DNA of 63,580 nucleotides, counting the filler, from Reclinomonas americana ATCC 50394 (taxonomy: Eukaryota), in the NCBI GenBank assembly GCA_048213135.1. It is 6 parts of 3 records of this genome, joined end to end, with 100 filler letters (N's around TTAATTAATTAA, not from the genome) between each part and the next. Parts side by side here need not be neighbours in the genome. Positions count along the whole stretch, not along the records: positions 1 to 13,375 come from PS015279.1; positions 13,476 to 23,162 come from PS015280.1; positions 23,263 to 46,639 come from PS015280.1; positions 46,740 to 51,652 come from PS015280.1; positions 51,753 to 60,712 come from PS015280.1; positions 60,813 to 63,580 come from PS015281.1. One strand, written 5' to 3'. Within the stretch, counting starts at the first letter, position 1. Every line of letters begins with the position of its first letter. Under the pieces are notes generated by a model, which was not told the DNA's origin, ran no database searches, and worked only from the letters and a program-made list of their open reading frames with translations. Shown piece after piece: positions 35 through 62,409 of the stretch. A program made the translations under genes and the position numbers.

Positions 35-2442
35 TCAACACACCATCTGCACCAGCTCACTGTCGACCGACGGATTCCACATGCCCGAATTTTGCCCGAG
101 ACGCGCCAATTCACCGCGCACCTGACGCAAGCGATCTTCGTGCCGCGGAGTGCCCCAGTATCGCGACATGTAGTTGGTGGCCGACAGTCCGCGTGGGATA
201 AGCTGGCGCACCGCGAGCGGCGCACCATCGCCACCACGCGACGATACCAAATCTGACGAGTGCGCAAACGGCGGTGAGGCAAGGAAACTCAGAGAGAGCG
301 AGACGAAACAAACACACAAGTGCACGCAACGGAACACGAGGAACTTGTAGGGAGCGGGTCGGAAGCGCAGACTCGATGTGCAGCCCACACCAGGAGGAGT
401 GATGATGCCCAGTGGAGTCAGGCCGGCCACGGTGACCTTCTCGTTGAGGACTTGCTGTGCAAATGCATCACGCGACATTTCTTGCAGCAAGCCCAAATCC
501 ACCTCGTCCCACTCCTCGGCTGCAACCAGAAGACCTCATGTCAACNNNNNNNNNNNNNNNNNNNNTAGCAGCAGCGGCAGCACACCGACGATTTGCAGCT
601 CCTGGCACGCCTCACTGATGGACTCGCGGTACGGACCGCCTGCAACGGCACATTGATGAACAAATGAGGACACTACGGGGGGGGCAGAACAGCTCCACAA
701 ACCAGCATCCTCGGAGCCCTCGCCCTCGAACTTGACCTCCCAGGCACGCTTGTCGGAGAGGAACAGTGCATTGGTGCGACTCGTTTCTCTGTACAGCTGA
801 CCAAACACGATCGCTTGCCAAACACGTCACGCGACGGATCTGCGACACACGCACACACACACACTTATTGGAATCAAACAAAACCCACCTCCACCAAAAA
901 GAATACACGCACCTTGCCGATGACGAGCGGCTCGTGCACGGTTGACCTTGATGGAGGGCGCAGCGGAGGGTTTCTCCGTCGCCGCCAACGCCTCCTTCCA
1001 CAACTCGCGCTTCTTCTCCAGCACAATGAGCGAGCGCACACGACCCAGCCAGAAGGCGAGCGTGTCGGGAGTGTTCAGTTTCTCCATGTCCACCATTGGG
1101 ATGGCGGGCAGCGCCAACAGATTCAGGTACTTGAGCACCGCCAGGCGACCACGGATGGCGTCCACCGGGAGGCCACGCAGTGCCGGGAAGGTGATTTCGT
1201 CCTCCTCCGTCATGAAGAACACAGCGGCGTCGATCTTGCTGACCTCCAAGTGCTCTTTCTCGCACTTGATTTGCAGCTACGAATGAAACGAGCAATCAAT
1301 TAGCGTGCNNNNNNNNNNNNNNNNNNNNAGTCGGAATCTGCACACACGCACACACAACACACAGAGTCAGCGGCCGACAATTACACCGACCACCACCCCC
1401 ACCAGCCGTTGCTCACCTTACTTCACCCCACTCAGCCTCGGTGGTTGGCGCGCGGCTGCGGCCCCAGACGAAACGCAAGAACCGTGACCGCTCCTCTGGC
1501 GAGAACGATTCGAGTGCCTGCCAAAAATACTTGACGGTCGGATGTTGCGAATCCAGTGCATTGCGATAGTCTGTTCTTCGCTTGAGGTCCTCGATGTTGA
1601 GAACCGGCCGACCACACACCAACACCTCCAGATCACGCCAGTCGAAGAGACCCAGGAACTGGATTGGCTGTGGTGCAAAATCACTCGATTCAGCAACGCA
1701 CACAGCGTTTGCAGCAGTGAGTGACTCGAACACGCGCACTCACCACCACACAGTTCAAGCCCTCCTTCATCTTCTGCACTTGCAACTTGCTCTCCTCCAG
1801 TCGCTTCTTCAGCAACAACTCCGCATACTCTACCAAATTCTCGGAACTGCACGCGGGAGAAGAACGAGCGTCAGCTACCCAGCTGTGAATGCAGACGTGG
1901 GCGGTGGCGTCCACGCAACGTGATTGGTATTTCACGACCGCCCTCCTTTAGCTCCACCTCCACACCACCCGGAAGTACACACGTGAACGTGGCACCGGTC
2001 ATGCCGGCCACAATGTCCGCGCGGACTTCCTCGTCGGCCTCCAATACCGACTGAATGAACCGTGCTGTTGTCGTGTCAACGGCACTCAGGTCAGAGAGCG
2101 TGAGCGGTTGGTCCACCTGCACCGAGAGAGCGCGCAGTTAGCCTGCAGCCTCCTGTGCATTGCCAACAACAAAACACACTCGCTGCGCACCAACTGCTTC
2201 CACACAGTGACGGCCAGATCGAGATTGAGCGTGTTCCGCGTGCGCAGCGCAATGCCCATCAACTTGCCCATGAATTTGTACATGCCGAGATGGACGGGCC
2301 GCGTCGACGCCGGATTCACAACAAATTTCTCGCTGTGACGCATGGAGCGGTTTCAGTAAAATACACAGAGCAGGAGTGGACAGCAAGTGACAGCAGCAAC
2401 TCACCGATTCTCTCCAATCTGATTCGTGTTGTTCGAACAGGG
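35..2442 (-). CDS. HERC-like HECT E3 ubiquitin ligase, partial, multi-exon, spread over three individually flipped contigs
   Basis: Spliced translation gives FGQLY..WEVKFEGEGSEDAGGPYRESISEACQELQ..LPLLLPCSNN..YKFMGKLMGIALRT..WRDLEVLVCG..FWQALESFSPEERSRFLRFVWGRSR, typical HECT motifs. Gene order is 545->1, 1308->566, 2442->1329. The catalytic Cys end is missing. Confidence 0.9.
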
Positions 2443-3161
2443 NNNNNNNNNNNNNNNNNNNNNNNNNNNNNNNNNNNNNNNNNNNNNNNNNNNNNNNNNN
2501 NNNNNNNNNNNNNNNNNNNNNNNNNNNNNNNNNNNNNNNNNNNNNNNNNNNNNNNNNNNNNNNNNNNNNNNNNNNNNNNNNNNNNNNNNNNNNNNNNNNN
2601 NNNNNNNNNNNNNNNNNNNNNNNNNNNNNNNNNNNNNNNNNNNNNNNNNNNNNNNNNNNNNNNNNNNNNNNNNNNNNNNNNNNNNNNNNNNNNNNNNNNN
2701 NNNNNNNNNNNNNNNNNNNNNNNNNNNNNNNNNNNNNNNNNNNNNNNNNNNNNNNNNNNNNNNNNNNNNNNNNNNNNNNNNNNNNNNNNNNNNNNNNNNN
2801 NNNNNNNNNNNNNNNNNNNNNNNNNNNNNNNNNNNNNNNNNNNNNNNNNNNNNNNNNNNNNNNNNNNNNNNNNNNNNNNNNNNNNNNNNNNNNNNNNNNN
2901 NNNNNNNNNNNNNNNNNNNNNNNNNNNNNNNNNNNNNNNNNNNNNNNNNNNNNNNNNNNNNNNNNNNNNNNNNNNNNNNNNNNNNNNNNNNNNNNNNNNN
3001 NNNNNNNNNNNNNNNNNNNNNNNNNNNNNNNNNNNNNNNNNNNNNNNNNNNNNNNNNNNNNNNNNNNNNNNNNNNNNNNNNNNNNNNNNNNNNNNNNNNN
3101 NNNNNNNNNNNNNNNNNNNNNNNNNNNNNNNNNNNNNNNNNNNNNNNNNNNNNNNNNNNNN

Positions 3162-4211
3162 TTCCGCGGCGGCGACGTATACATGCGCATGGGCGACGCA
3201 ACGCCACCGCTGGTCGACGACGACGCGGACGACAGCGGACTGAACATGACACCACCCAAGTTGTGCATCTCCATCTCCTGTTGCTGCTGCTGCTGCTGCT
3301 GCTGCAACGAAAGCGCCACCAGCCGCTCCTTTCTCCGCCGTCGCACCCAGTAAAACACACACATCACCACGATAATGGCGACAATCACAAACGCGCCGAG
3401 ACCAATGCCCATGTAGAGAATCGTCTGTGAGTTGTCGGTGGTGCTGGTCGAGTCCACAGTCGTGCCACTGGAGGTCACATCGGAGCCCGTGGATCCATCC
3501 GCACCCGCCAGCACGTACTGCCCACCGACAGTCACCGAGAAGGTGTTATCATTGTAGATGCCGAGACAGTAGATGCCGGCGGCGGGTATGCTCGAGGTGT
3601 TGTTGAGCCAGCGAGCGGGATTGACCGAGAGCGGAGTATTCGTGGTGGCGTCGAAGCTGTAGGCCACAACAAACTGGAAGCTGCGACCAGCCACCATGCT
3701 ATCATAGGCATCGGTGGTCATCAGATACACACTCCAGGCTGCACGCACAAAGGAGAGAGTCAGTGAGCAAGCACAAAAAAGAGTCATGAAATCAGACACG
3801 ACACAACTCGTCGCGCTGTTGGCGCTCGACGACGACAGCGACACACCCAAGTTGTAGCCAAAGTAACACGACGGGCATGTGACACTGCCAAACTGCGAAA
3901 AGGAGAGTGAGTGAGCGGAGTCAATGACTGTGACACACACACACACAAACAGACAAAGAGCGCGCAACTCGTTGACCGCGTCGCGCCGGTAGTGTAAAGC
4001 TCACAGAGACCGGGTTGAAGCCGACTCGCGGCACTTGCTCCTCTTGCTCGTCAAAGGCAGCACTCTCCCACTCGTGATCACTGTCACTCCGCACTTTGAT
4101 CGCCGAGGCCACACGCGCTCTCCGCCACTCCGCCCACACGAACAGCAACAGCAGTGTGGCCACTGTGCCCATGAGCAGAAGGCGCAGCACAGTGCGACGC
4201 TCACGAGTCAT
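3162..4211 (-). CDS. Predicted type I membrane protein, 3'-partial
   Basis: N-terminal hydrophobic segment, two GT-AG introns, extracellular region, TM segment ILYMGIGLGAFVIVAIIVVMCVFYWV followed by RRRRK and poly-Q. Runs into the N gap. Confidence 0.6.
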
Positions 4212-4266: not shown

Positions 4267-6295
4267 ATGACTGCGTTGGAGCAGCAACTGAGTGCGCTGC
4301 ATGTTGAGTGAGTGTCGGTACTCTTGTGTAAGCACATGCTCACCATGAGCACACACACACACAGGAGAGTGTGGAGCGACTGAAGGCGACGGATGCTGGC
4401 AATGAGGTGACTGCGTGCGAGTTGGATAACTTTGAGCGACTGGCTGCGCGTCACTTGCACGGTCAGTGAGAGCTTGCATACTGTCTCTGTGGCACGGAGT
4501 CTGAGTATGCGTACACAGAGCGAGCGCGTGGGCATCATGAGATTGCGTGGGAGAGCGTGCATGCACTGTTGCCGGGGGATCCGCGCATGCGTCTGTATGA
4601 GGAGCTGGAAGAGCCGGAGTCGCGTGAGGAGTGTCGTGCGCTGTTGCAGAAGCTGGTGGTGCTCAAGTTGAATGGAGGACTCGGCACCTCCATGGGTGAG
4701 CGTCGCTGTCGAGCGTGAGTCGCTGGAGACAAGTGGACTGAGCTGGTGCGCAGGCTGTGAGGGACCAAAGAACGCCATTGAGATCCGCCCGGGTGTGTCG
4801 TTCTACGATTGCTTTGTGGATCAGATCGAGGTGCGAGTGTGATTGGTGGTGCACAGATGCCCGCGTGATGTTCATTGGTGCTTTGTCGCGCTGCAGCACT
4901 TGAACGAGACGTACGATGTGGATGTGCCGCTGGTGCTGCTCAACTCGTTTGCCACGCAGTCGTTGACGGAGGAGATTCTGCGTCGCGAGTGCTACTCGCC
5001 GGAGCGCAGGCGGTGTCGCATTCTCACGGTGCAGCAGCAGCGGTTTCCGCGCATCGATGCGGAGACGTTGTTGCCGGTGCCGAGTACCGCGTGCGAGGAC
5101 TCGGTGTGGTCCATGTCTTGCTCTCTCTTTGTCATGTCCTCCTCCCGTTTCTCATCACGCGAATCGCCGCAGCCCGACTTCAATCTCAACGAGTGGTATC
5201 CACCCGGGCACGGCGACGTGTACGACACGCTGCTGTTGCATGCACCGCAGCTGCTCGAGAAGCTGCGTGCCGAGGGACGCGAGTTTCTCTTCACCTCCAA
5301 CGGCGACAATCTCGGCGGCTGTGTCGATCTTCATATCCTTTTTGTTGCTGCTGCTAGCTGGCGATCGTGGCTCTCATGTATTCCGCGTCCTTGACTCGTA
5401 TGTGTCGCGCACGCATGTTGAAGCATATTGCGGCCGGGCACGTCGACATGTTCAACGAGGTGGTCGAGAAGCTGCCGCGCGACAAGAAGGGCGGCACACC
5501 AATCCTGCACAAGGCGGGCCTGAAGATGTTGGAGACGGCCGAGGTGCCGGCGCAGCATGTTCGTGTGACTGACTGCAAGTTTAATACCGTGTTGGTGAAT
5601 GGATGGTTGCTGACTGTGGCGCACCCAGATGCATGAGTTTTGTGGTATTGACAAGTTCAAGGTCTTCAACACCAACAATCTGTGGTTCCGCATCGACGCC
5701 CTGCAAGCACACCTCGAGCTCGACATTATCGTCAACAAGAAGGTCTCCATTATCTCTCCCCTTGACTTCTGTGTGTGTCTCATCGTCGCGTCACGCAGCG
5801 CCTCGGCGACCGCGGTGTCATCCAGTTGGAGACCGCCATGGGATCGGCGCTGCAGTTCTTTGAGCGCTCCTGTGCCATTCGTGTGCCACGCATTCGCTAC
5901 GCCCCTGTCAAGACATGCACCGATCTGCTGCTCATCATGAGCGATCAGTACCACGTGGAGCACGGACGCCTGATGAAGCACGACCCGCAGTCGCCACCAC
6001 CCATTGTGGATCTACACGGTCGATACACCACGGTGTCCGAGTTCATGGCGCACTTCCCGCGCGGCTTCCCCAGCACCAAGCAACTGACGCACTTGCGTGT
6101 CGACGGCAATGTGGTGTTTGGGGCGGATGTTGTGCTGCGAGTTCCGTCTGCCACTGTTCTCTGCAAACCCCATTGTCTTCGACAACTCATTCATGCTTTC
6201 CCCCTCTGCAGGGCGACGTGACCATTGTTGCCTCGCACGACGATGCCGTCGTGCCCGACGGATCCGTGTTGGAGAACGAGACTGTACGAGTGTGA
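4267..6295 (+). CDS. UGP2: UDP-glucose pyrophosphorylase (UTP-glucose-1-phosphate uridylyltransferase)
   Basis: KLVVLKLNGGLGTSMGCEGPK, WYPPGHGD, SNGDNLG, DKKGG, FNTNNLW, QLETAMG, RYAPVKTCTDLL after removing about nine short introns. Confidence 0.95.
5333..5412 (+). other. U12-type (minor spliceosome) AT-AC intron in the UGPase gene
   Basis: 5' end ATATCCTTTT, branch motif TCCTTGAC at 5388-5395, ends CAC. Removal restores the frame VDL-R-MLKHI. Confidence 0.93.
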
Positions 6296-7891: not shown

Positions 7892-9440
7892 NGCAGAGCT
7901 GTCTGAGGAGAACGCCAAGCTGATCCGTCTGCTGGCACGCACGGCATGCGGCAACCTGTCGCCGATGTGCGCCTTTATCGGTGGCATTGCGTCGCAGGAG
8001 GTGTTGAAGGCCTGCTCCGGCAAGTACGAGCCCATCAACCAGTTCCTGTACTTTGACGCCGTGGAGACGCTGCCGGGCGACATTTCGGAGACCGTGTCGC
8101 AGGTGACGGTGGACACGCTGCAGACGCCACCGCTGAGTCCGTCGGACGCGTCACCACCGCGCGAGGGTGCCAGCCGCTACGACGGCCAGGAGGTGATTTT
8201 CGGCAGGGGGATTCAGGTGCGTGCATTTTGTGAAAGGCTGCTTGGTCTCTCTTTCACCTCACACTCGACGCAGGAGCGACTGGAGAACCTGCGCTACTTT
8301 GTGGTCGGCGCGGGCGCTCTCGGCTGCGAGTTCCTGAAGATGTTTGCGATGATGGGTCTGGGCACGGGTCCCGAGGGTCACGTCATTGTCACCGACATGG
8401 ACCAGATCGAGAAGAGCAACTTGAGCCGACAGTTCTTGTTCCGCGATGAGCACATTGGAGTTGCGTGTGTGCCGCGGCTTCTTCTACTTTTGTGGATTGA
8501 CGTATTGACGTAAATGTGCATGATCGCAGATGAGCAAGAGCTCGGTGGCTGCCATGGCCGCCCAGGAGATGAACCCATCCATGCGCATCACCGCGATGCA
8601 GGACAAGGTCGCCCCCGACACGGAGAGTTGCGTGCAACAGCCACACACGCACACACACACCACTTGCTTGCCAGTCTACTTACTCGTTGCGCAGGCCTGT
8701 TCAACGACGATTTTTGGTCCTCGCTCGACGGCGTCACCAATGCCCTCGACAATGTGGAGGCACGCCGATATGTCGACCAGAAGTTGCGTTCTCCTCCCTC
8801 CTTCCCTCCCTCCCTCTTTGCACATGCATTCTCAACGCCCGCTTCCACAGGTGCGTCGAGTACGGCCTGTCGCTGCTGGAGAGTGGCACCCTCGGCACCA
8901 AGGGCAACGTGCAGGTGGTCGTGCCGCATCTCACCGAGTCGTACTCGTCCTCGAACGACCCGGCCGAGAAGAGCATTCCAATTTGCACGCTCAAGAACTT
9001 CCCGAACGCCATCGAGCACACACTGCAGTGGGCGCGTGATCTGTTCGAGGGCTTCTTTGCGGCGCAGCCGAGCGACGTCAACAGCTACGTCAGCAAGGCC
9101 GACTTCCTGCGTTCGTTGGAGGCCAACTCCAGCAACCTGGCCACCACCGTCAGCAATCTGTACACGGGGCTGGTGTCGGAGCGTGCCGTCACCTTTGACG
9201 ACTGCGTGCGATGGGCGCGCGTGCGATTCCAGGAGCTGTTTGAGAACAATATTCGCCAGCTGCTCTTCACGTTCCCCGTCGACGCCAAGACCTCGACTGG
9301 CCGTTGCGTCACTCGTGAGAGACCTTGCTTCATCATGCTCACTCACTCTTGGTGCGCCGCGCAGAACCCTTCTGGGGTGGCACCAAGCGCCCGCCGACGG
9401 CGCTTGCGTTTGACCCGGAGGACCCGCTGCATCTCGGTTT
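7892..9440 (+). CDS. UBA1: Ubiquitin-activating enzyme E1, central part (contig flipped); N-terminus not in view
   Basis: [53 protein letters not shown] and catalytic [10 protein letters not shown]. Ends HLG-TT and continues with C-GTG at 7465 on the minus strand (HLGFVTAAAN). Confidence 0.95.
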
Positions 9441-9517: not shown

Positions 9518-10252
9518 CTCCACGGGCTCCTCCTGCAGGAAGTACTGGCCAGAGGCCTCCTTCTGGCCCTCGAACTTGCCGTCCAGGCCGAGCTTCTGCA
9601 GCATGCGGCGACCGCACAGCAGGCCCACGCAGTAGGTGGAGGCGTAGTTGGTCAGACCGAGGTGCACACCGTCTGCAAAAATCGCATGAGACTCGCTGCG
9701 TGCACAGAAGCCTCGCCCACAACAAGAAGAAAAAACGCAACAGCGTGGCAGCTCGTGCGCGTAGGCGGCAGCGTGCACCATGTCGCCCTTGATGGTCGAG
9801 CTGACAATCTGGCACACCACGTCCTTGTTGGTGTGGCGCACCACAAAGCGGTACTTGGGTGTGTTGTACTTGGTCTTGTCCTGCGACACCATGCGGCGGC
9901 GAGAGTAGTAGTCGGTCTTGCCCTCGCGGCGGCGGCGGAACTGCACCTGGTACCTGCATGCATTGCACATGGAAGATGAAAAAAATCATCATCATCGCCA
10001 GTCAGTCATCCATGAGAGCGGAGAGTGGCCATAAAGAGGGAAGGGGAAAACGCACCGCTTGAAGTAGGCCTTGTTCTTCTGCACCTTGACGTAGGTCTGC
10101 AGAGGGCAAGCAGTGACAGTGAGTGTCATGTCGTCCCCACTCTGGTTTCCCACACACACAACCACACGAGCAACATGGACACTGAACGACGACGCTGAGT
10201 GGACGAGAGAGGATGGCGGCAATGCACACGAAGAGAGTGGAACGGGAGCCAT
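9518..10252 (-). CDS. RPL5: 60S ribosomal protein L5 (uL18), 5' exons (contig flipped)
   Basis: [60 protein letters not shown]. Confidence 0.96.
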
Positions 10253-10597
10253 GACTCTGCCATGGCAAAGTGCACCTCACGCTCTCTCTCTCACAACACA
10301 GGTGCACACATGCAAACAGCAGCAGCAGCAGCAAAAGGGAGACAGTACACACGGTGCTGAACAGCCAGCACGGCGTGCGAGTGGGGAGCGGAGCGAGAGA
10401 GAGGACATGACATGCGCATGTGCATGGCAACCACCAACACGCTCACACGCGCAGGAACACCACCAATACGCTCTCTCTCCCAGAGACACGCGTGCACCCA
10501 CACACACAACACACACGAATCCCATCCCAATCGATCAAGAGGGCCGCACCATTCCCGCNNNNNNNNNNNNNNNNNNNNCTGGCGTGCTGTCGTGCAG

Positions 10598-12436: not shown

Positions 12437-13375
12437 TCAGAACTGCTCCAAGAACCACTCAAACACCTCCTCGCTGTCTACATCGTCGGACATGCCGGTT
12501 TCGATGCTGTCGTCGCTTCCCAGAACCTGCCGCCCGACTCAGCGGTGAGATGCACACTCATCATGTACGGAGATGAGAGGATACAGGGGCGCGCACCTCA
12601 GTTGCCGAGTCGGACATATCGTTGAGTGAGTTCTCGTCGTTGTCTGCCAGTGCATCCTCTGCCACGTACAAGTCGTCGGCCGACAGTTTTGCAGAGTCGG
12701 CGTCCTTTGCTGGGTCGCGCTCCGAGAACACATTACGCAGGAACGGGTTGATGGCGGTTTTTCTTGACCGAGGCTGCATAGAGGCAACAACTGCACGTGA
12801 GAACGCCAGCGCAGACACGGGAGACAACTCGTTCGCCAGCAGAAACGCAACAGCAGCCCGCCGGCGATGAACGTAGTGCTTGGCCTTCTGCTCCACAACA
12901 GCGGTGAGTAGGGGAAGGGTTGATGGCAATACCACACACACACATATGTGTGCAACGCAACGGGGTTCTGCTGCATCGCGGCTTCCACTTCGGTATCGTC
13001 GACATCATCCTGCGTCTCGTTTACCTCCGGTGCCGATTCCTGCGNNNNNNNNNNNNNNNNNNNNCTTGCTGCTCGCGTATGCACCATGTGAGTGACTCGA
13101 GCAGACGAAGGAGAACACTCAGCATAACAGTTCGCAACTTGCGGTGCCGCTTGAGGTGCAGCCGGTGGTGCGCTCGCACCCGGTGCCTGCAGTCGCTGCG
13201 CCGAACGCACCAGCATGTCGCTCAACATGGACGCGTCGCGCTCGTCGTACGGATTCAAGCCGAGTGAGCGGGCGATGGAGACAAAGGCTTGCTCGGCGGC
13301 CGTCGGCGCTCCGGGAGCTCCTGGTGGCGGTGGTGCACCTGGGCCCTGCATGAACATGGCCTGCTGCTGCTGCTG
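12437..13375 (-). CDS. Hypothetical protein, 5'-partial, Pro/Ala/Gln-rich with acidic C-terminus
   Basis: Open exons with GT-AG introns, ending SEEVFEWFLEQF*. No family recognised; interrupted by a 20-N gap. Confidence 0.55.
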
Positions 13376-13419
13376 NNNNNNNNNNNNNNNNNNNNNNNNN
13401 NNNNNNNNNNNNNNNNNNN

Positions 13420-13431
13420 TTAATTAATTAA
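13420..13431. other. Artificial six-frame-stop linker TTAATTAATTAA (also 23207-23218, 46684-46695, 51697-51708, 60757-60768)
   Basis: Identical 12-mer embedded in N runs of uniform size. Confidence 0.97.
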
Positions 13432-13475
13432 NNNNNNNNNNNNNNNNNNNNNNNNNNNNNNNNNNNNNNNNNNNN

Positions 13476-13671: not shown

Positions 13672-14359
13672 CTAGGGTCCATTACTCTTTGCCAGCGATT
13701 CTGCGGGCATTGTCGTCGTCGCGGTTGTCGACGGCGCCATCAGCATGACGGTGCGGAACTCCTCGAAATCCACCTCGCCATCGCCATTGATATCGGCGGC
13801 AATCAGCATCTCCCGAAAGTCCTCTTCGCTCAATGCGACCTCCGCAGGCGCAGCACCGGGAGTAGCTGCTGCTGCATTCCCAGCAGGCGCATTCGCCGCC
13901 AACAGCATACGAATGGCCGAGGCCAGCTCGCGCTCATTGATCTTTCCGCTCCCATCCGAATCAAACATGCGAAACACCGCGCGCAGATCGGCCTCCGGAT
14001 CGCCCGCCTCCATCACCGCCACGATCAGCTCGCTCAACTCGCCAAACTCCACGAATCCATCGCTGTGCTGGCGCACCTCTTGAATGATCTCGTACACCTC
14101 AGGCGTCCACGATTTCAGCCCTGCGAAAGGAGGCCGTGAGCCAGCCTGTGTGTGAGGCAAAAGCGCGAGGCAGAGGACACACGCACCAAACTGCGTCAAC
14201 ACGTCGATCAACTGTGCACGAGAGCATGAGAGACACACAAAGAGAGAGTGGAAGGCGAGCACTGAGCGGCGTAACAGCGTGTATTGTGATGCGCCCTGTG
14301 CGATCGCGGTCGTATCTGTCAAAGATCACACGCAGCTTGCGTTGCAGTGCCTCGTCCAT
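13672..14359 (-). CDS. Calmodulin/centrin-like EF-hand protein
   Basis: EF loops DRDRTGRITIHA, HSDGFVEFGE, DSDGSGKINERE, DINGDGEVDFEE; two introns. Confidence 0.88.
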
Positions 14360-14449: not shown

Positions 14450-16376
14450 ATGCGGAAGAACTCACTTCTCCTTCTCCTTCTCCTGCTGCTGCTGGCGCTT
14501 GTGCTCAGCAGCAGCGCACGTGCTGCTCGCGACGAGGAGGAAGACGATGAGGAATTTGAGCCGCCCTCACAGGAGGAGATGCAACAGCAGTTGCAGTTTG
14601 CCATGCACACTGATGCAGCCATGAGCACATCGTCGCAGCCGGTGGCACCCGTGGAGAACGATGAGCGAACAAGCGCCTACATTGATGTCAAAGTAGTGTG
14701 AGTGATGAGATTGATGATGACGCCTTATCCGCTCGCCTTATCCGCTCGCCTAGCGAGTGAGGCGTACATACACACACACACGCACATGTACTGAGCGCTT
14801 GTCTTGCTTCTCAACGCACGCAGTCCGAGTGACAAGGAACGCCACGTGGCGGCCATGGTGTTCGATGAGGAGGCGCGCGAGTTGGACATTGACTGCGCGT
14901 ACCTGTGCAAGCGGGCGTGCTGCAAGGCCAGTGCGGTGATTGAGGTGCCACCGGAGGGCGAGGAGGCGCTGCCGGAGCCGCCGCGTCTGCTGTGCTTTGC
15001 GGGCTGCTATCGGAATTGCACGGCTGGTGCGCCGCCAGAGCCCGAGCCGTCCGAGCCGGCGCCTGGAGTTGCGTGGCTGCTCCTGCAGGTGCTCTGGAGC
15101 GGAGATGGTGACTTGTGTGTCCGTGTGTGTGTGAGTACAGCAAGACAAGGACGCCAAGCCGCAGCGCAAGACACCAAACTCAGTCGGCAACTACCTCAAG
15201 TTCAATGGTCTGCGCCGTCGTCGTCACTCCTCTCTCACTCTCTGTGCACGCTATTGACTGCTCTGCCTCCTCCTCCGCTCTAGGTCTGAACAAGATCAGC
15301 TTTGTGACGTGGAACATTTGGGCGGTGGCCAAGTTCTATCAGGATGTGCTCGGCGGTGTCATTGTGGAGAATGCCAGCTACGACAAGTACTTTTCCGATG
15401 AGCTCTACGAGGGTCTCTTCCAGAAGGAGATCACCGACGCGCGCATGAACCGCCAGCACCGTGCCAAGCGTGCCGTGGCCGACTTGTCGGACTTTGGCAA
15501 GGATCGCATGGCCACGCGTCTCATTAGCTTTGGTGACACGTACTTGGAGCTGGTGCAGTTTATTGGCCGTCGTCCGGCCTCGCTCACCTACACGCCGTTC
15601 CGTGCCAACTTTACGTCGCCGGGCCTGATTGGCACGGCCTACATTGGCTTCGAGGTGAAGCCGGAGGTCGATCTCGGTCGCTTCATCAACGAGTTCGAGA
15701 ACGTCGCTCGCAAGCACAACTTCAACTCGGTGCGCTGCAACCGCGTGCAAGAGGTCGACGACGAGATCGACCGCATCTCCAGCGGCCGCCGCTACCCCAA
15801 GAACAACTTTTACCGCAACGCCGATGGCCCGTTCACCGGCTGGGAGGTGGCGTTCTGCAAGGGCCCCGAGGGCGAGCAGATCCAGTTCAACCAGTACAAT
15901 GGCGAGTCCGGTCGTCGTCTGGCTGCCGCGTTCCCTCGGTGCGCTCTATTCTTTTTTAATGTGTGTACTGGTAGAGGACTCACTGCCATGTGTGTGTTTG
16001 TGCGCGCGCCCGCGACAGCTACGTGCATCAGCGCATGAGCGAGTACGCTCCGTACGAGTTCAAGGGCAAGTACCCGCCGGAGGTGGCCGACTCTGCGACC
16101 ACGCTGGCCGCCGGTGCCTTTGAGGCGGAGGACGAAGCCGGTGTCAAGACGGAGCACGCTGTCAAGCCTCGCGGTGCGCGCCTGGTGTCGAAGGGTCGTG
16201 GCGGCGACGACGACGACGACGATGACGACGACGATGATGACGACGATGACGAGGACTACGGCCGCGACGGCGCTGGCGACGATGATGACGACGACGACAG
16301 CGACGACGACGAAGACGAGCCGTCGCTGGACGTCAAGCCGCGCAGCATGGCGTCGCGCAAGCGCGAGGAGCTGTGA
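14450..16376 (+). CDS. Secretory-pathway protein with glyoxalase/VOC-like fold, acidic tail and C-terminal REEL
   Basis: Signal peptide MRKNSLLLLLLLLLLALVLSSSARA, Cys-rich segment, then NKISFVTWNIWAVAKFYQDVLGG, YLELVQF, AFCKGPEGEQIQFNQ, poly-Asp and RKREEL*; four introns. Confidence 0.65.
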
Positions 16377-23526: not shown

Positions 23527-26500
23527 GCAAGTGGGCACCACGAAGCTGCGCCTGGTCAGCATCTCGGGCCTTCTGCCACCCGCTATCACCGGCTTGGATC
23601 CGATGGCGGCCGTGATTGTCATGGTTCGCGTGCCACGCCGAGCGTTGCTTAGCCCTTACTCCGCGCGGAACTCACCTCCCACGATGTTAACTCACAGGGC
23701 CTGTACCTCAACCCCACCGACGTGGTGCAATTCTCGACGTCATCTACGTGCGCAACTGTCGCTGCCAAAGCGACATACATTGTGAAAACGAACCCGCAGC
23801 GCACCGAGTTGACGGCATCCATCGGCGGTTCAGGACTGGATCCTGCCGGCTCGCCGTACTACGTGTGCCTGCAAATCAGCAGCGACCTGCCGTCGTTGGT
23901 CCTGTCGTCACCCTCACTGGCCGTCGTCAGTGCGTTTTCTCCCACATTGCTTCCATTCCAGCTAGGTCGACAACTGATTGTTCTGTGTGAGCAGGTGCTG
24001 CGGTGCTGACGGGCTTCGCCCCCACCAGCATTCCGACATTGGATATTGGCGCCGTGCTCACTCTGTTGCGTTGCACGAGTGCAGAGAGATGTCTGAGGTG
24101 CCTTGCTCGTCCTCACTTTTGCTCACCTCTCTGTCGTTGGCGATCAGCACTGGAACTGGCCTGCGCACGACAGACACGATCATGTTCACACAAAGTGCGT
24201 GCATTGTAATAATTGCTGCCGATATTGTCGATTGCTCTACTTACTGGTGTTTGTTTCCTCTGAGCAGACACGTGCAGTGACACAGCGAATGTGTACACAT
24301 CGACTGGCCCGCGGCAAGTGATCATGGACAGCTATGCATATGCATCGAACGATGGCGGACCGAATCGCCGCATGATCATCACTGTTGGTGGGATTGGTTT
24401 GCCTGTGGGCAGCTCCCTCACGTCGCAGACGTACAAGATCTGTTACACTGGCTTTGTGTCCACGGGTACTGCCTCAGCGACACTGCTCTCGTCCCCGACT
24501 CTTACATCCGGTGTGTTTCACACATCTTCTGCTCTAAACCTATGTGTATATGCATGTTGGCGTGCATCGGCAACTCACTGAGCNNNNNNNNNNNNNNNNN
24601 NNNNNNNNNNNNNNNNNNNNNNNNNNNNNNNNNNNNNNNNNNNNNNNNNNNNNNNNNNNNNNNNNNNNNNNNNNNNNNNNNNNNNNNNNNNNNNNNNNNN
24701 NNNNNNNNNNNNNNNNNNNNNNNNNNNNNNNNNNNNNNNNNNNNNNNNNNNNNNNNNNNNNNNNNNNNNNNNNNNNNNNNNNNNNNNNNNNNNNNNNNNN
24801 NNNNNNNNNNNNNNNNNNNNNNNNNNNNNNNNNNNNNNNNNNNNNNNNNNNNNNNNNNNNNNNNNNNNNNNNNNNNNNNNNNNNNNNNNNNNNNNNNNNN
24901 NNNNNNNNNNNNNNNNNNNNNNNNNNNNNNNNNNNNNNNNNNNNNNNNNNNNNNNNNNNNNNNNNNNNNNNNNNNNNNNNNNNNNNNNNNNNNNNNNNNN
25001 NNNNNNNNNNNNNNNNNNNNNNNNNNNNNNNNNNNNNNNNNNNNNNNNNNNNNNNNNNNNNNNNNNNNNNNNNNNNNNNNNCGATGTTGACTGTGCATGT
25101 ACCGGCGCCGCCACTCGTGGTCGCCGCCGCCGTCGTTGAGTAGCCGCTGCCGGCAGCAAGCACAGCCACTGCCTGCACCGCACCGCTGCTCACTGCCAAC
25201 ACGATGACCTGACCGCCCGATCCACCACCACCACTGACGGTGAGTACGTCGCCCACAACATAGCCGGTGCCACCAGCGGCCACTGTAGCGCTCAGAATGC
25301 CGCTGCTGGAAAAGGAGCTGTCAACTGTAAGCCCAGCACCGCTGCCGCCGGCTGTCGTCAAGCCGTTGCCGAGTGAGTATCCCCACCCAGGGTTCCACAG
25401 CTGCACGGTCTTCACTTGGCCCACCTGAGTTCCACCAATCAACACGCACACCGTGTACGCTCCTGCGGATGTGACACAATGGGATCTTGGATCAGAAAAC
25501 ATATGTGGTCGGCCACATGCACAGCTGATTGCCACGAGTCACTCACCGTTACCGGTCGCATTAAGCGCAGCTGTGAACGTCTTCGACGAGATACTCAACA
25601 TACTCCCACTGCTCACTCCGGAGTGAGGACAGTCGTATCCAGCCACAATGTACGCCTTGTCACTCGCTCCCACACCACCAGTGATGGTGACCGTCGCGGC
25701 AGCTGTGTGAGTGTCAACGGCCCATTTGTCGATCTGGTAGAATGCCACTGCGGTGGTGCACATCATCCGCNNNNNNNNNNNNNNNNNNNNTATCAGGTGC
25801 TCTTTCCACTGTGAGTACTGGCATTCTGAGCGCTACTGTTGCCGTCGGCGGCTCTGGCTACGCTGCCGGTGACAAGCTCACTGTCAGCGGTGGTTCGAGC
25901 GGCCAGCTTGTTGTGCTGACAGTGAGCAGCAGCGGCGGTGCAGTGCAAACGGTAGCCGTGTATGCTGCAGGCTCTGGATATTCAACGGCGGCCGCAGCTA
26001 CTACGAGCGTCTCAAGTGGCGGACCTGGAACCGGCTGCACTGTCAATGTCATCTCTGGCTCACTTGCCACTGCATACACTGGCCTCGTTAGCGCCGCGGT
26101 TGCCGCTGGCGGCTCCGGCTACGCCGTCGGCGACCAGCTCACCGTCACCGGTGGCGGTGGTAGTGGCGGCAAGGTCTACGTGCTAACGGTCAGCAGCGGT
26201 GCGGTCCAGACGGTGGCTGTTTTTACTGCCGGTTCTGGATACGCGACGACGGCGGCGGCGACGACCACTGGCGGTGCTGGAACCTGCACGATCAACATCG
26301 TTTCTGGCACTCTTGGCTCTGTTGGCTCTGGTATTGTGAGTGCCACAGTGACCGCTGGTGGCTCTGGCTACGCTGTCGGCAACACGCTCACTGTCACCGG
26401 TGGCGGTGGGTCTGGTGGCACCCTTTCCGTGCTGGCAGTGAACAGCAGTGGTGCGGTGCAAGCTGTCGCTCTGCTTACTGCTGGTACCACGTACACGACG

Positions 26501-33472: not shown

Positions 33473-34396
33473 ATGGACGAGGAGAGAAGACAACGGCGAA
33501 TGCGACTTGCTCAGTTCCGTCTCCCTTTCTCCCTCTCTTGCCCTCTCTCTCTCATGCTGATGAGTTCCCTCACACAGAACACACCTGGCGGTGAACGAGA
33601 TTCACATGGAGCTCTTGCGAGAACAAAAGGTAGCATCACACACACGCACACACGTTCATCCTCTCTCACACTCTCCTCACACTCGCTCACAGGAGGGCCT
33701 GCTCGTTCTCCAACACCTGACACTCTCGCCTTCGAGTCCAGCACCATCGTCAGTGTCGCCCTCCTCAGCACCGCAATATCGACCACATCAGCAGAGTGTG
33801 TCACCTGCAGCCGCATTCACCACTGCCGCAGCACGGCAGTCACCGTTTGTTGGTTTGTGTATGTTGTGTGTGTCGCTTACGGGCGCACACTCATGTCGCT
33901 GAAAATCGCGACAGAATCATCATCAGCGACGACGACAACAACACCAACAGCAACAGGAGATCGACCGTGGCATCGACTGCACATTGTTCCACCAGCCTAC
34001 GCCTCGCCACCACAGCCTCCCGTGCTATCGCCACTGCTCCTGGCCTCACTATCACCGCCACCGCCACTGCCACCACCGCCGCCGCCACCGCCACCAGCAG
34101 CACAGCCGCTCATGTCGTCGGCGTTTCGTGTGGTGCGACCAGTGGGACTTGCGCCTGCACCGGCGCTCGGTGGGGTGGCGTTCTCCGACCCACATCCAGT
34201 CACGCGACCTCCATCCACCACGTCGTGGCTCTCGTCGACATCGTCTTCGGGGTATGCATCGTCGGCGTCGTCTATGCTCGGTTCGTTGTCGTCGTCGGTG
34301 GCGACGCCAGTGGCGTACTCAACTGGCCCGCGCTCCGTGCCGTCCAACCTCACTCCCACAAGTCGATTCCTGTCCGCGGCCACCACGCCACCGTGA
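33473..34396 (+). CDS. Hypothetical Pro/Ser-rich protein
   Basis: MDEERRQRRMRLAQ start; three plausible introns give a continuous low-complexity frame. Confidence 0.45.
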   Translation: MDEERRQRRMRLAQFRLPFSLSCPLSLMLMSSLTQNTPGGERDSHGALARTKGSITHTHTRSSSLTLSSHSLTGGPARSPTPDTLAFESSTIVSVALLSTAISTTSAECVTCSRIHHCRSTAVTVCWFVYVVCVAYGRTLMSLKIATESSSATTTTTPTATGDRPWHRLHIVPPAYASPPQPPVLSPLLLASLSPPPPLPPPPPPPPPAAQPLMSSAFRVVRPVGLAPAPALGGVAFSDPHPVTRPPSTTSWLSSTSSSGYASSASSMLGSLSSSVATPVAYSTGPRSVPSNLTPTSRFLSAATTPP

Positions 34397-37325: not shown

Positions 37326-40300
37326 ATGGCGTCGGAGCAAGGAGGGTGCGGCGCCTCTTGCAAGTCTGGCATCGCCGGTCTCATCGTCCGCCTCGTCTCC
37401 TGTTGCTGCTGTCGCCAACCTGTCGCTGTTGCGTCGCAATCTCTGCTGTCATGTGCGCGACTCTCACTCACTCACTCACTCGTGGTCAAGTGCAGGATGG
37501 CGATTTCGTGGTCGACGGCCTCCGCAACGACGATGTGACGATCCTGTACGACGAGTGGGGCGTGCCGCACATTCGCGCTGCAAGTGTGCACGATGCAATT
37601 TTCGCGCAGGTGTGTCTCCGTGCATGCATCGCCCTCTCTCTCTCTCACAGTCTCTCTCTTTGTTCACACATCGTGAGCAGGGATGGTGTGTGGCCCGCGA
37701 TCGCCAGTGGCAGTTGATGCTGCTGCGTGCGGTTGCTCGAGGTGTGCTTGGCTTGGTGTACATCGCGGAGCATGCATCTCTTTGGTCTCATGCATTGCAG
37801 GTCGTGTGTGCGAGATCGCTGGTCCGAAAGCGCTTACGGCCGACAAGATCGCGCGCACCGTCGGCTTTGTGCGACTCGGGCAGTCGGATGTGGCGCACTG
37901 GAGCGCGGATTCGCTCGAGTACAGCACCGCGTACGTGGCGGGTGTGAATGCGTATGCCACGTCGGCGGCGTACAAGCGGCCGGTGGAGAGCACGCTGGCG
38001 CACATGGGCGACATGCGTGACGACTTGTACACGGTCGAGGATCTGGCGGCCCTCTCGCGGCTCTTCACGTTCCAGATGAATACTGGCTGGTACGAGCCCA
38101 TTCTGCGATCACTGATCGCGCAGCATGCGCCGAATGCATACATTCGGGACGAGGTCTCGGATATTCGGCGTCCAGATGGTGCCCGCATTCCGTACTCGTG
38201 TCCACCAGGTACAGTCGCGCACACACAACACAGTCGCGTGCACTACACCTTTCTTTTGTGCATGACCATCCGCTGTGTTGTTTCATGATGGCAGACTTCG
38301 ACATGAAGACTGTGGACCCTGACGACATTATGTGCATGATCAATGGACCCTTTATGGCGAGTGGCCAGGGCTCCAACTGGTGCGTTTTTTTGGCCTCCCA
38401 TTTCTCGCTTGCCGTGTGTGTCATATATGGACTGACTCGCCACACTCGTCCAGGTGGGTGGTGCACGGCAGCCTCACCAGTACAGGTGCGCCGTTGCTGG
38501 CTGGTGACCCGCACCTGGCCATCATGCTGCCTGGAATTTGGTACGAGTGCCACTTGCAGGCGGCCGAACCGCCGCTGAATGTCGCCGGTGTCAGCTTCCC
38601 CGGCACCGCCGGCATTGTGATTGGACACAATGAGAACTGCGCGTGGTCCATCACGCTGGCCTACCTCGACTGTGCCGATGTGGTGCGCTACGATATCAGC
38701 ACCGACGAGGGACGGAGCGCGGCCAATGTCCAAGAGTGGGACGAGGAGATTGTAGTCAAGGGCGCACCGAATGTGGTGCACGTTGCGTCCGCCACTCACT
38801 TTCCGCGCCGACGATGCTCCGCCCGTGACGAAAATTTCTCATGTGAGCGCGCACAGAAAGTACGCCGCACTCACGACGGCCCTGTCCTTGGCGACTTGTT
38901 TCTGCCGGAGAAGAAGGAGAACGAGCTGCTGGCGTTTCGTTCTCCCATGTTTTTCACTGTGGAAGAATGTTGCGTGACCGCTTGTGTTGCTTTACTACCT
39001 CCACTTTGAATGACGTGAGGTCTCTTTTCCCTCTGGCGGCATGCAGTGCGAAACCTACCGTATGCCACCGACGTGCCGCATGTCGATCACCGCGATGGCA
39101 CGACGGTGTTGAAAGTGGCCTCCGCCGACGAGGTGGCGATCACGGAGCCGAACTTGATTATGAACCTGAATTTCGCCAAGAACCTGGCGGAAGTCTACCG
39201 TGCGCTCCGCAGTGTGCCGGTGCCCATCAACCTCAATTTCGGGTGCATCGACCGTACGAGTATCGGCTACTTTGTGGTCGGCTGTGTGCCCATTCGTTGC
39301 GGTCCGTTTGCCGACATTCTGGACGGCACACGAGCGGACAGTCGGTGGAAAGGATTCATCCCGGTGGCCGAGATGCCGTACGCGATCAACCCAGCATGGT
39401 GTGGCGCAACACGACGACTCGTCCTCCCATCGCGATGATCTCTCATTCGTCGCTCACCCACACACACGCACAGCGGCTATTTGATCTCTGCAAACCACAA
39501 GATCGTGTCCCACGACTCGTACGCGTATGCCCCTGATCTGGGCAACGTCTTCCTGAATGGCCGTTACGTGTCCAGAGTTTCTTGCGACAGGCTGTTAACA
39601 CTCTACTGACATCGCTCGGCAACAGACCGCGCCAAGCGCATCCAGCAGCTATTGTGGGAGCTGACACACGACGGTCGCAAAATTACTCCGGGGGACATGC
39701 AGGCCATGCAGAGCGATGTCAAGGTCTTGCTTGTTTTGCCTCACCCTTTTCTTGAAGGAGTTCAACTCACGGCGCATGCGGTACTTTTGGTAGACCACGG
39801 CTGGTGCGCTGTTGCAAGACGCCATTGCGCCGCTGCGACAAGATATGGAAAGCGGCGACCTCAGTGCACTGGCGCGTGAGGCCCTTGCCCGCTTCCTTGC
39901 CTGGGATCACGTGCTCGATACCGAGTCGATCGGTGGCTGCATTTATGAGGTGTTCCGCGCTCGACTTGTGCGCAACCTCCTCGAGTCTGTGTTGACGGAG
40001 CACATTGCGGATCGCATGCTCGGCGATCCTGTGGTGCCGAAGTTCAAGCCAGCATGTTGCGTCACTTTCATCGATTCTCGCACTGCATTTTCCTCATGGC
40101 GAAATACACAGCCGGCTTCAACTCGAACGAGATCCACTTGCTGCTGGAACTGATTCGCGACGAGTCGAATGTGGTACAGACCGCCGGCGGACTGCACCAC
40201 GTACTCTGCAAGAGCATGGAGGACTCGGTGGAGTATCTGCGCCGTCGTCTCGGTCCAAACATCAACAAGTGGAAGTGGGGCGCCGTGCATCAGCTGACGT

Positions 40301-40917
40301 ACTCGCACGGCATGGGCGACGTTGTGCGCACGTTTAACCGCGGACCATATCCAGTTGGCGGAGTTGCGTTTTTTTCGGGCCTCTCTTCCCCGAGGCAGTG
40401 CGCTTTCTAAACAGCTGGCGGTGTGCGGCGGCAGGATGGCGATACTATCAACATGACCTTCATGTGTGCCCATCACGACTTTGCCGCTGGCATGTTTGCA
40501 CCTTCGTACCGCATCGTTGTCGACATAAGTCATGCGACGGCGCAGTCAGTGCTTCCCGCCGGGCAGGTGTGTCTCGCCACTTCAGTCTTGTTGTCTGCCT
40601 GTGTCTGTGCTCTGACTTGTCGTCATTCTGCGACAGTCTGGAGCGCGTGGAACCACGGTAAGTCAAACGGCGCCTGCCTCTGTTTTCATGCTTGCTAATA
40701 TAATCTCGTGTGTGCTTGTGTGTGTCGCGCAGCACTACGATGATCAAAGTTACGCGTGATGCAACTGCCCAGGCGCGCATCGCCCACTCACCTATTCTTG
40801 TTTTCAGTTCCGCTGTATCTTCGCGGAGACCTTCGCTCGGGACCACTTCGCAGCGGTGCTGAACTGGCCACCACCACTCAGCACGCCATGCGACTCCTCC
40901 ACAGCGAGCACAAATGA
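37326..40917 (+). CDS. Penicillin acylase / AHL-acylase family (peptidase S45) Ntn hydrolase
   Basis: VTILYDEWGVPHIRA, AQGWCVARDRQWQL, GQG-SNWWVVHGSLTSTGAPLLAGDPHL, PGIWYECHL, GIVIGHN, SANHK, WKWGAVH, PSYRIVVD, PAGQSG, HYDDQ; about 15 introns. Confidence 0.92.
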
Positions 40918-40987: not shown

Positions 40988-41903
40988 TCAACCTGCGGCT
41001 GCTACCATCAGGTCCGAGTTCTCCACGATGGAGATATCGCCGACAGCGCCATTGTTGGCATGCAGAAGCCAATGGGCTGATGAGCAGGGTCTGTCTTCTT
41101 CTCATCGATATCACCGGTGCTGACCGTCGCGTGCATGCACGTGCGTGTGGCGGAGAAACTCGAGATACTCAAACACCTCGGCGGCGTTGCGCGTTCCCAC
41201 TCGCTGTGCGAGCGCCTCGAGATCAATCGGCTGCTCTCGGCGACTGTCGCTTCCGCGTCGTTGAGCGCAAAACACCATCATGAGCCGCTGATGCTCGTCG
41301 GCAGTCCACGGACGATCCGGTGGCGGCACCTGCAGGAACCACCCACACTGTGTAAAACATAGAGAAAAGCCCATTCTCTCGCGCACACAGCGATGCACGC
41401 AACCGCCGACTGCATGTGCGCCTGCAGTTGTCTGCCAGTCTGCTCCACTTTCTGCAGGCAAAGAGAGGTCACTCACAGGCGACAGAGAGTTAGTGAGTGC
41501 AGCTATCCTCCGCACCTGCATGTCGACGCCCAGCACCACAGGTGCATCACGCTGCGAGTCGGCCACCGCCACCAGCGGCAACAATCCGTCTTGGATCACT
41601 TGATGATAGCTGTGCATGCATGCATTCATCAGCAGTGCTCTACGACACACACACGCAGCAAGTGGCCGCACCGAAACGCCTCTGCCAAGTGGCCGCGCTG
41701 CAGCAGCGCCGCGAATGCATTCAACAACAAGTCGTTCTCCGCGAGGATCTGTGTCAGTGTGTGAGAGGTCGCATTCTCACACACTCGGCTTGTGTGTGTG
41801 CACACGCAACACTGTCAATGTCGCGCGGATCCTCTACGAACGGAGCAGCAGCTGAAGCAGACGAAGAAGAAGCAGAAGGGGGGTCCTTTCTTGGCTCACT
41901 CAT
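40988..41903 (-). CDS. SSXT/SNH-like domain plus Myb/SANT-like domain protein
   Basis: ILAENDLLLNAFAALLQRGHLAEAFRYHQVIQDGLLPLVAVADSQ resembles the SS18/GIF N-terminal domain; WTADEHQRL..LAQRVGTRNAAEV resembles a Myb/SANT domain. Confidence 0.6.
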
Positions 41904-51650: not shown

Positions 51651-51790
51651 GTNNNNNNNNNNNNNNNNNNNNNNNNNNNNNNNNNNNNNNNNNNNNTTAA
51701 TTAATTAANNNNNNNNNNNNNNNNNNNNNNNNNNNNNNNNNNNNNNNNNNNNCACATGATCTCTTTCTTCAACACAAGCGGACAACGCAC

Positions 51791-60712: not shown

Positions 60713-61001
60713 NNNNNNNNNNNNNNNNNNNNNNNNNNNNNNNNNNNNNNNNNNNNTTAATTAATTAANNNNNNNNNNNNNNNNNNNNNNNNNNNNNNNN
60801 NNNNNNNNNNNNAGAGAGAGAGAGAGAGAGAGAGAGAGGACCAGAGAATTATGTGGTGAATAAGATGCGTTGCGTAGTTCAGAGAATACGAAAAGAACGT
60901 GTGTGAGAGAGAGAAAGAACATGGATAGAGCGAAGACAGAGTGCCAAGTACAGAGCGTCACGACACTGAAGGTGAACTAATTGTTTTGTCGACAAACACA
61001 C

Positions 61002-62409
61002 CTTGATTTGATTGGACCACATGACAACGGCGGATTCCAACACATGCACACGGTCGCGGTCGCGCTCACGATCGCGCTCGTGGCCGGGGCCCACCGAGTC
61101 CTCTGATGGCGGCAGTGGCAGCAATGTGCGACCCTGTTTGTTTGTTTTTTTGCAAGGGTGAGCAACAAGAAGAGACCAGCATTGTTGAAGAAAACAAAAA
61201 AAACGCAACAGCCGTCTGGCCAATGGTGACATAGGTGTTGGCGAGGAGCTGATGGAACGAGTCGAGCACGCTCTTGGTGACAATGTCGGGCAGTCCATCG
61301 TGTCCGGCCGGCGACGCCAACAGCGGCATAAACACCTCCGATCCAATCGTGGACAACTGCTCGAGCACCGCCGGTGACAAATCGCCGACAATGGCCGCGC
61401 CCGCCGCCAGCTTGTCCGCCGTCAGCTGCCCGAGTTCCTTTTTCAAAAAGTACAGAAACTTCTTCTTCGGCCCCGCCGGTGGTGCCGGCAGCGCCTGCAC
61501 GCCCGAGCCCGCCGGTACAATGAACAGCACTCGTGCGTCTTCTCCATCGCCGTCAAAGAAATGTGCAATTGATTCCCTGTGAAGGAGGAGGAGAAGGAAA
61601 GGGTGTAAGATTCAAGGGAGTTTTCGAGCCATCGTCGATCTGATCGTGTGACTTCAAGTGCGACAAAGGGAAGATGAGAGGGAAGGAATGGTGGAACGAG
61701 CTCACGGGGGAAAAATAGATCCTTCAAGAGTAGTTGGCACTCTCACGACAACACGGAAAACGACGATGAAGGAGAAGGAAGAGAGGAAAGGAAACAGAAG
61801 AAAGATGCAAGCATCGATCCATCGCCGATCTGATCGCGCGACTTCAAGTGTGCGCGACACTCTCATGACACGGAATACGACACAGAAGCGATAGTGAAGG
61901 ATAAGGAACAGAAGAAGAAAACAGAGAAAGACCAAGAGAAACAGCGATCAATCCACCTGCTGATCGCACGACTTCAAGCACTTGACACTCATGACAACAC
62001 GAAAAACGACACAGAGGCGATGAAGGAGAAGGAATAGATGAAGAAAGAGAAAGCAAGAATACAAGCAGAGACAAGGGAAAGATGCAAGCATCGATCCATT
62101 GCCGATCTGATCGCGCGACTTCAAGTGCGCCACGCTCAACGATCGCACAACAACAACAACAAAGCAAGAGCGCAGACAGACGAGAGACAGAGAGAGAGAG
62201 AGGCAGAGCGCGCGCGATTGCAAGGACATCTCCCACGCAACTTTCCCTCCTCTGTGGCGAGGAACTTTTTCCAGTCGGCCGGCTTGATCTTGAGCGAGGA
62301 GAGCACTCGATCCTCGAGCCATGCCAGACGCGGATCGCCCTATGAAGAAAAAATATGATGTCAATCGCACATCAGCAGTTTCTAAACAGCTCACTCGCGC
62401 GAGCAACAT
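61002..62409 (-). CDS. Outer-arm dynein heavy chain (beta-like) N-terminus, probably the same gene as 51791-60712
   Basis: DPRLAWLEDRVLSSLKIKPADWKKFL, KKFLYFLK, IGQTAGRTLLPLP, DRVHVLESAVVMWSNQIK. Start codon uncertain. Confidence 0.85.
61625..62130. repeat. Degenerate ~130-145 bp tandem repeat inside a 665-nt dynein intron (62241-61577)
   Basis: A core close to CTGATCGCGCGACTTCAAG recurs near 61630, 61820, 61955 and 62097. Confidence 0.8.

Follow-up and report, generated by a model that had tools for sequence, protein, structure and literature searches.

A GTTGCGT class of 5' splice sites offset by one base in a genomic window of Reclinomonas americana

A 63,580-nucleotide stretch of the genome of Reclinomonas americana ATCC 50394 (assembly GCA_048213135.1; hereafter the window, meaning the whole stretch of DNA analysed) carries, side by side with ordinary 5' splice sites of the type G|GTGCGT, a large second class of donors in which an extra T after the initial GT places the conserved GCGT block one base further downstream. 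These sites, typified by GTTGCGT and referred to here as GTT donors, make up 18–22% of the predicted introns, roughly a fifth, are cleaved before the first GT, and almost never follow an exon that ends in G. The explanation that we favour, to which we assign a probability of about 0.55, is that a single motif occurs in two donor forms and is read in a shifted register, the cut falling before the first GT.

Abundance of the GTT donors and their dependence on the last exon base

The original prediction, made by inspection of the sequence, had listed 27 GTT motifs as donors, and all 27 were found at their coordinates, on their strands and with their preceding bases; A, C or T precedes 26 of them, the sole G-preceded motif being that at 31608. 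Four candidate donors, at 330(-), 12851(-), 24065 and 36227(-), were added to these, for a total of 31 sites. Counted on both strands, GTTGCGT is present in 38 copies, as against 15.66±4.19 in dinucleotide-preserving shuffles, none of 100 of which reached 38, and the G|GTGCGT heptamer shows a comparable enrichment (32 copies versus 14.96±4.18). Of the 38 copies, about 16, either antisense or without an open frame, do not act as donors, which is the number expected by chance. The raw counts depend strongly on the third base (GTTGCGT 38, GTAGCGT 2, GTCGCGT 17, GTGGCGT 23), and in 80 unrelated metagenome loci (342 kb), a weak control, GTTGCGT was found 29 times, as compared with 38 times in the 63.6-kb window.

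Introns were predicted with a dynamic-programming gene finder that was self-trained on the window and used GT...AG boundaries, coding potential, intron composition and a learned acceptor profile; to avoid circularity it was given no donor score and was thus blind to donors. This donor-blind finder predicted 109 introns, of which 16 had an exact GTTGCGT donor and 12 a GTGCGT donor. The loose GTT pattern fitted 20 of the 109 (one of them, at 6129, is probably wrong), in agreement with the earlier claim that the class is a major one. When a mixture of position-weight matrices was fitted blindly to the 109 donors, two components were preferred over one (Bayesian information criterion 2961.6 versus 3000.7): the first combined a G frequency of 0.60 at -1 with GTG.GT, and the second a G frequency of 0.04 at -1 with GTTGCGT.

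The near-exclusion of exon-final G, a claim of the original prediction, was borne out in the donor-blind set, in which 1 of 20 GTT donors followed a G, compared with 32 of 42 ordinary GTNNGY donors (Fisher p=1.4e-7). A donor-informed rerun, which is partly circular, gave 1/24 versus 50/57 (Fisher p=4.5e-13). Read in the other direction, GTT-type sites account for 19 of the 29 donors that a non-G base precedes, and for 1 of the 33 that G precedes, in the donor-blind set. The dependence runs one way, as had been proposed, since some exons that do not end in G keep the ordinary register; a|GTGCGT opens the introns 23930..23994(+), predicted in both donor-blind and donor-informed runs, and 24195..24267(+), predicted in the donor-informed run. 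Most of the dependence can be attributed to the one-base shift, which puts the intron's own G where the exon G normally sits, and no significant difference was seen between the base at -1 in GTT donors and the base at -2 in their ordinary counterparts (chi-square p=0.26). The further idea that the extra T makes up for the missing -1G fared badly, as pairing with the canonical U1 small nuclear RNA (snRNA) is worse with the T than without it and the -1 base simply resembles the ordinary -2 base.

Support for individual junctions came from alignment of spliced translations with homologous proteins (8 for UBA1, 8 for RPL5 and 10 for a penicillin-acylase-like protein), and ten GTT junctions were free of gaps relative to the homologues. 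Four of them lie in UBA1 on the plus strand, at 8460..8529, 8627..8694 and 8783..8850 (each a|GTTGCGT) and at 9303..9364 (c|GTTGCGT); all four were also predicted by the donor-blind finder and have conserved residues on both sides, as in YVDQK|CVEYG at 8783. Another four belong to the penicillin-acylase-like gene, also on the plus strand: 38782..38856 (c|GTTGCGT) and 39563..39625 (c|GTTACGT; G|HRAKRI), both found by the donor-blind finder and the former lying in a continuous alignment, together with 40363..40434 (a|GTTGCGT; RGPYPVGG|DGDT) and 40749..40807 (a|GTTACGC; HYDDQ|IPLYLRG). At 6141..6211(+), an a|GTTCCGT intron in a gene for a bacterial-type UDP-glucose pyrophosphorylase (UGPase), the tblastn match of homologues stops at 6140 (...FGADVVLR) and the following exon resumes with GDV as the homologues do. 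The tenth junction is that of the RPL5 intron 9673..9741(-), with the donor t|GTTGCGT. Homology sets the place and length of an intron and in some cases leaves room for both ends to slide by one base; identical terminal dinucleotides across all sites are obtained only with the GT-AG placement. In RPL5 the position of the cut is fixed by the protein itself, as the invariant Tyr of ELPRYG is encoded only if the cut falls before the GT, one-base slides yielding Cys or Asp. The predicted cleavage before the GT therefore stands, and the GTT donors are confirmed as real within this window.

Beyond the 5' end the two classes of introns are alike. Both occur side by side in the same genes, have equal base composition, and carry a YTNAY branch-like motif some 20 bases upstream of the 3' end (GTT 18/23, ordinary 44/52, counted 8–45 bases from the intron 3' end) and a CAG acceptor (GTT 21/23, ordinary 49/52); the median length is 70.5 bases for GTT introns and 73 for ordinary ones. 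An RTATCC donor was found in none of 24 GTT introns and a U12-like branch motif in 1 of 24, and the mean pairwise local alignment score among GTT introns (7.8) was close to that among ordinary introns (8.05). With no similarity beyond the donor, the GTT introns are therefore not copies of a mobile, introner-like intron. Reading frame and homology were restored at the ten junctions, and the YTNAY motif and a YAG acceptor are present, so that the GTT introns are genuine short (~60–80 base) U2-type GT-AG introns.

Recognition of the two donor forms

Under the favoured shifted register, the two donor forms would be instances of a single motif, G-[G/T]-T-G-C-G-T, with one recognition register. A G as second letter would itself begin the first GT and leave the leading G in the exon, giving G|GTGCGT; a T as second letter would complete a GT that begins one base earlier, with the leading G, which would then open the intron, giving H|GTTGCGT. 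Both forms would be bound at one position by whichever RNA recognises the 5' splice site (by analogy U1), with one mismatch tolerated, and the catalytic core would then cut before the sole available GU. What is seen in the window is a conserved block displaced by exactly one base and a cut at the upstream GU. The tail that follows the extra T is also more rigid in GTT donors (G.91, C.79, G.90, T.79) than its counterpart in ordinary donors (G.69, then a mixture of C, T and A, G.78, T.57), as expected under a shift because the mismatch would need to be offset. The RNA that reads the motif, and the register in which it does so, are matters that we infer.

At +4, ordinary donors have C (.39), T (.35) or A (.26) and never G, a preference that is the reverse of what canonical U1 favours and a hint of some departure from the usual U1/U6 in the RNA that faces +4. 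Pairing energies were calculated with duplexfold of the ViennaRNA package and the canonical U1 5' end as given in PMC4856993, from which the host U1 may differ.

Several results weigh against the shifted register. The mean pairing energy with the canonical U1 end is -1.45 kcal/mol for GTT donors and -6.53 kcal/mol for ordinary donors; the +1G lies opposite U1 C9, as the shift would have it, in 2 of 24 minimum-energy duplexes of GTT donors; and removal of the extra T strengthens the pairing of the GTT donors to -2.71 kcal/mol. On the exon side, G at -1 of GTT donors is somewhat rarer than G at -2 of ordinary donors (1/24 versus 12/57, p=0.095), and T at -2 is found at 0 of 24 GTT donors versus 15 of 57 ordinary donors (p=0.004); neither the scarcity of G at -1 nor the absence of T at -2 follows from the shift model. 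No snRNA, and no transfer RNA, was detected in the 63.6-kb window at Rfam gathering scores. Finally, all results have as their base this one window and gene models made in the course of this analysis, and 28 of the 109 donor-blind introns, those with donors of neither class, are doubtful.

Canonical U1 pairs poorly with GTTGCGT, and ordinary donors prefer C or T at +4; the recognising RNA is therefore likely to differ in this organism. Variant U1 or U6 snRNAs, suggested in the original prediction, may be at work; the 5' end of U1 may be altered in this lineage, for example with a G facing +4, or recognition may be assisted by proteins. Good pairing with both donor classes is predicted for hypothetical U1 ends that have G or GC at positions 5-6. 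It is conceivable, although we hold it as a tentative proposal, that recognition has been rebuilt, with U1 (or a second, U1-like RNA) bearing a 5' end so altered as to fit GCGU tails and the displaced site, and with two registers in routine use, chosen by whether G or T follows the conserved G.

A more doubtful alternative assigns the GTT donors to an RNA of their own, either a second U1 variant or a transformed U11-like RNA complementary to GUUGCGU, and leaves the remaining sites to ordinary U1. The very poor pairing of the GTT motif with canonical U1 would be accounted for in this way, and -10.5 kcal/mol is obtained for a hypothetical RNA whose 5' end has GC at positions 5-6 and an A inserted. 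A near-invariant heptamer without an exon consensus also recalls the donors of U12-type introns, a second, discrete class set apart by a rigid donor heptamer (RTATCCTT), the lack of an exon consensus and a TCCTTRAY branch site close to the 3' end. The likeness to U12-type introns ends with discreteness, rigidity and the want of an exon consensus, however; the GTT donor is not RTATCC, the U12 branch motif is missing from all but one of the introns, and the introns agree with the main class in acceptor, branch-like motif, length and composition, all of which argues against a dedicated machinery.

Less probable again is a bulged register, in which +1G and +2U would form their usual pairs with U1, the additional U (at +3, or at +2) would bulge, and GCGU would pair normally. 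Registers with a single-base bulge at +2/+3 have been proven in human cells, as described in PMC4856993, and the GUU-type donors of the window, with one extra U before the conserved block, look like them. The extra base is specifically T, as the counts for the four third bases given above attest, and a hypothetical U1 with GC at positions 5-6 pairs with GTT sites through a bulge at -7.2 kcal/mol. Yet a bulge keeps -1 facing U1 C9, so that the normal preference for exon-final G should be retained, and at the GTT donors that G is almost absent. A bulged site would, moreover, have no advantage over GTGCGT in any context, which leaves the abundance of the class unexplained.

That there is no biological class, and that the pattern stems from a chance motif, gene-model bias, homopolymer error (T read as TT) or mobile introner copies, is very improbable and largely refuted, since, for all the roughness of an assembly with flipped, linker-joined pieces and the motif copies that are not donors, the motif count was never reached in shuffles, the donor-blind finder still picks the motif, ten junctions are confirmed by homology, a T-to-TT error could not depend on the last base of the exon, and the introns share nothing beyond the donor.

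Other junctions, genes and assembly state of the window

The remaining GTT introns are documented by the gene finder, by domain matches or by reading frame. In a gene for a HECT ligase, the intron 1847..1919(-), with the donor c|GTTGCGT, was predicted by the donor-blind finder, and the exons on either side of it align to positions 73-134 and 173-247 of the Pfam HECT profile, the spacing being right to within one residue. The donor-blind finder also predicted, on the minus strand, 253..330 (c|GTTGCGT; coding support 11.1; one of the four added sites), 3739..3807 (a|GTTGTGT; 18.4), 3893..3968 (a|GTTGCGC; 20.8) and 12888..12961 (c|GTTGCGT; 16.3), and, on the plus strand, 15068..15140 (a|GTTGCGT; 17.7). 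Both donor-blind runs yielded 29470..29529(+) (a|GTTGCGT; coding support 20.1) and, in a gene for a lectin-domain protein, 31608..31668(+) (20.5), whose g|GTTGCGT is the sole GTT donor after G. Two introns were placed in the tail of a dynein heavy chain gene, each with an uncertain acceptor: 61101..61209(-) (t|GTTGCGT; both donor-blind runs; coding support 15.2) and 61988..62241(-) (a|GTTGCGT; donor-blind finder; weak coding support of 4.2). The other three added sites came from the donor-informed run and are candidates: 12774..12851(-) (t|GTTGCGT) and 24065..24147(+) (t|GTTGCGT), which appear only in that run and have weak coding support of 4.1 and 5.9, and 36169..36227(-) (a|GTTGCGT; 10.2).

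The reading frame was the sole basis for the candidates at 4303, 14275, 32329, 33514, 37428 and 41810. The first of these, 4303..4364(+) with the donor t|GTTGAGT, is the candidate first intron of the UGPase gene; within 4303-4315(+) a canonical GTGAGT lies 5 bases downstream of the GTTGAGT and yields a stop, so that the upstream site alone keeps the frame with the nearest CAG, and the arrangement could be a case of tandem donors. In the EF-hand gene, the candidate 14212..14275(-) (t|GTTACGC) keeps the EF-hand reading ...GRITIHA|LIDVLTQF. The candidate last intron of the lectin-domain gene, 32329..32391(+) (c|GTTGCGT), is followed by a last exon of 6 codons; the frame stays open after removal of the candidate 33514..33577(+) (a|GTTCCGT); and at the candidate 41749..41810(-) (t|GTTGCGT), which has a low coding score and a CTGACACAG 3' end, it is open on both sides.

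Three introns of the penicillin-acylase-like gene, those at 37428, 38969 and 40056, fall in variable regions of the protein, where alignment gives no decision. With 37428..37495(+) (t|GTTGCGT), the candidate first intron, the frame closes to 840 codons, the N-terminal region being poorly conserved; 38969..39046(+) (t|GTTGCGT), from the donor-informed run, lies inside an insertion relative to the homologues; and 40056..40111(+) (t|GTTGCGT) was recovered in both donor-blind runs.

The predicted intron set is imperfect, as homology exposed wrong boundaries at three places. The donor that the gene finder chose at 8193 (intron 8193-8273) was rejected, eight residues being missing relative to homologues, and a G|GTGCGT is present at 8216-8222. 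The acceptor chosen for the intron at 38380 (38380-38471) was likewise rejected, homologues putting the end at 38453, which restores the catalytic SNWW. The third, a 36-base version of the 40363 intron, was ruled out by homology, which places the acceptor at 40434. In the other donor-blind run, in which signals were flat, many boundaries were misplaced, and a local open-frame test proved unreliable for short exons such as that at the homology-proven junction 40749.

The window has a GC content of 54% and contains 26 runs of N. Five identical joiners of 100 bases, each of the form N44-TTAATTAATTAA-N44, lie at 13376-13475, 23163-23262, 46640-46739, 51653-51752 and 60713-60812. The TTAATTAATTAA element is a six-frame-stop linker that strings contigs together, and the order and orientation of the pieces in the window are therefore those of a pseudo-scaffold and are not fixed. 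UBA1 is split over opposite strands across a gap, at 6409-7465(-) and 7893-9440(+), as is RPL5, at 9518-10194(-) and 10579-11095(+), and the dynein heavy chain gene on the minus strand has one piece, 53990-54466, on the plus strand. With pieces of these three genes on opposite strands, some contigs must be flipped relative to their neighbours.

The genes recognised encode a HECT ligase, the bacterial-type UGPase, UBA1, RPL5 and an EF-hand protein, as well as a lectin-domain protein, the penicillin-acylase-like protein, a PAS/HNOBA cyclase, an adenylate kinase and the dynein heavy chain, and they mark the organism as a protist that has flagella and many introns. The closest UBA1 and RPL5 proteins are ~65% identical. 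Heterolobosean UBA1 proteins score slightly best, by a narrow margin; a bird 'UBA1' that had the top score was discarded as a relative, its score being an artefact of a duplicated segment. A metagenome scan kept 80 loci, the best of them 65% identical and too distant for a comparison of orthologous introns. Both the UGPase gene (4268-6292 +) and the penicillin-acylase-like gene (37326-40917 +) have bacterial or metagenomic proteins as their best matches, yet they contain 8 and 15 spliceosomal introns, respectively, and are possibly old transfers in which introns have been gained since. GT/CA microsatellites are very frequent in the window, many of them intronic, with GTGTGT occurring 163 times on the plus strand and 117 times on the minus strand. 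They may be the source of the three weak microRNA-family matches, all below the family gathering score, that were the only result of an Rfam search of the window in E-value mode.

Known splice-site systems and significance of the GTT class

The shifted register itself is established for a few human sites (Roca & Krainer 2009, as cited in PMC4856993), and the GTT donors resemble the mammalian sites described there in having GU, one extra base, the conserved block one base downstream and cleavage at the upstream GU, the G of the intron taking the place of the exon -1G. In scale and sequence they differ: according to the same source, validated noncanonical U1 registers together amount to 1.5% of 201,541 human 5' splice sites, among which the shifted register is rare, whereas GTT donors open about one predicted intron in five of the window, and the tail is GCGU here and AAGU in the human sites, with very weak canonical-U1 pairing predicted for the former. 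Bulge registers are similarly scarce, the human +2/+3 and +3 bulges numbering 68 and 51 predicted sites, respectively (Tan et al. 2016, Table 3, PMC4856993).

Two-class 5' splice sites, as described in a 2022 paper and in the LUC7 paper, offer another parallel. In these systems, as in the window, the two sides of the junction behave as a see-saw, sites without the exon-side G having a stronger and more rigid intron side. Those classes share one register, however, whereas in the window the block lies one base further downstream in one class and the two classes separate almost completely. How the cleavage point is fixed is still debated, U1 pairing, later U5/U6 contacts and proteins all having been put forward in a review. 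In the literature searched, in which subscription journals were thinly covered and to which the organism's own genome paper may add a case, no lineage was found with a one-base-offset donor class as a main mode, and a search on the GTTGCGT motif itself returned primer matches only.

Shifted and bulged registers in human cells are infrequent oddities that have been studied in minigenes. A displaced register in about a fifth of introns, governed by an almost binary dependence on a single base, would amount to a natural experiment on a large scale; with paired examples numbering in the hundreds to thousands, one could ask which RNA determines the register and by what means the catalytic core locates the GU. 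For annotation, the practical consequence is that gene finders trained on a single donor profile would place the ends of exons before GTT introns a few bases off, or would miss such introns entirely. And if the tentative proposal of a rebuilt recognition is true, R. americana would provide the first case of an organism that relies on register shifting as a main mode, and not as an exception, in defining its splice sites.

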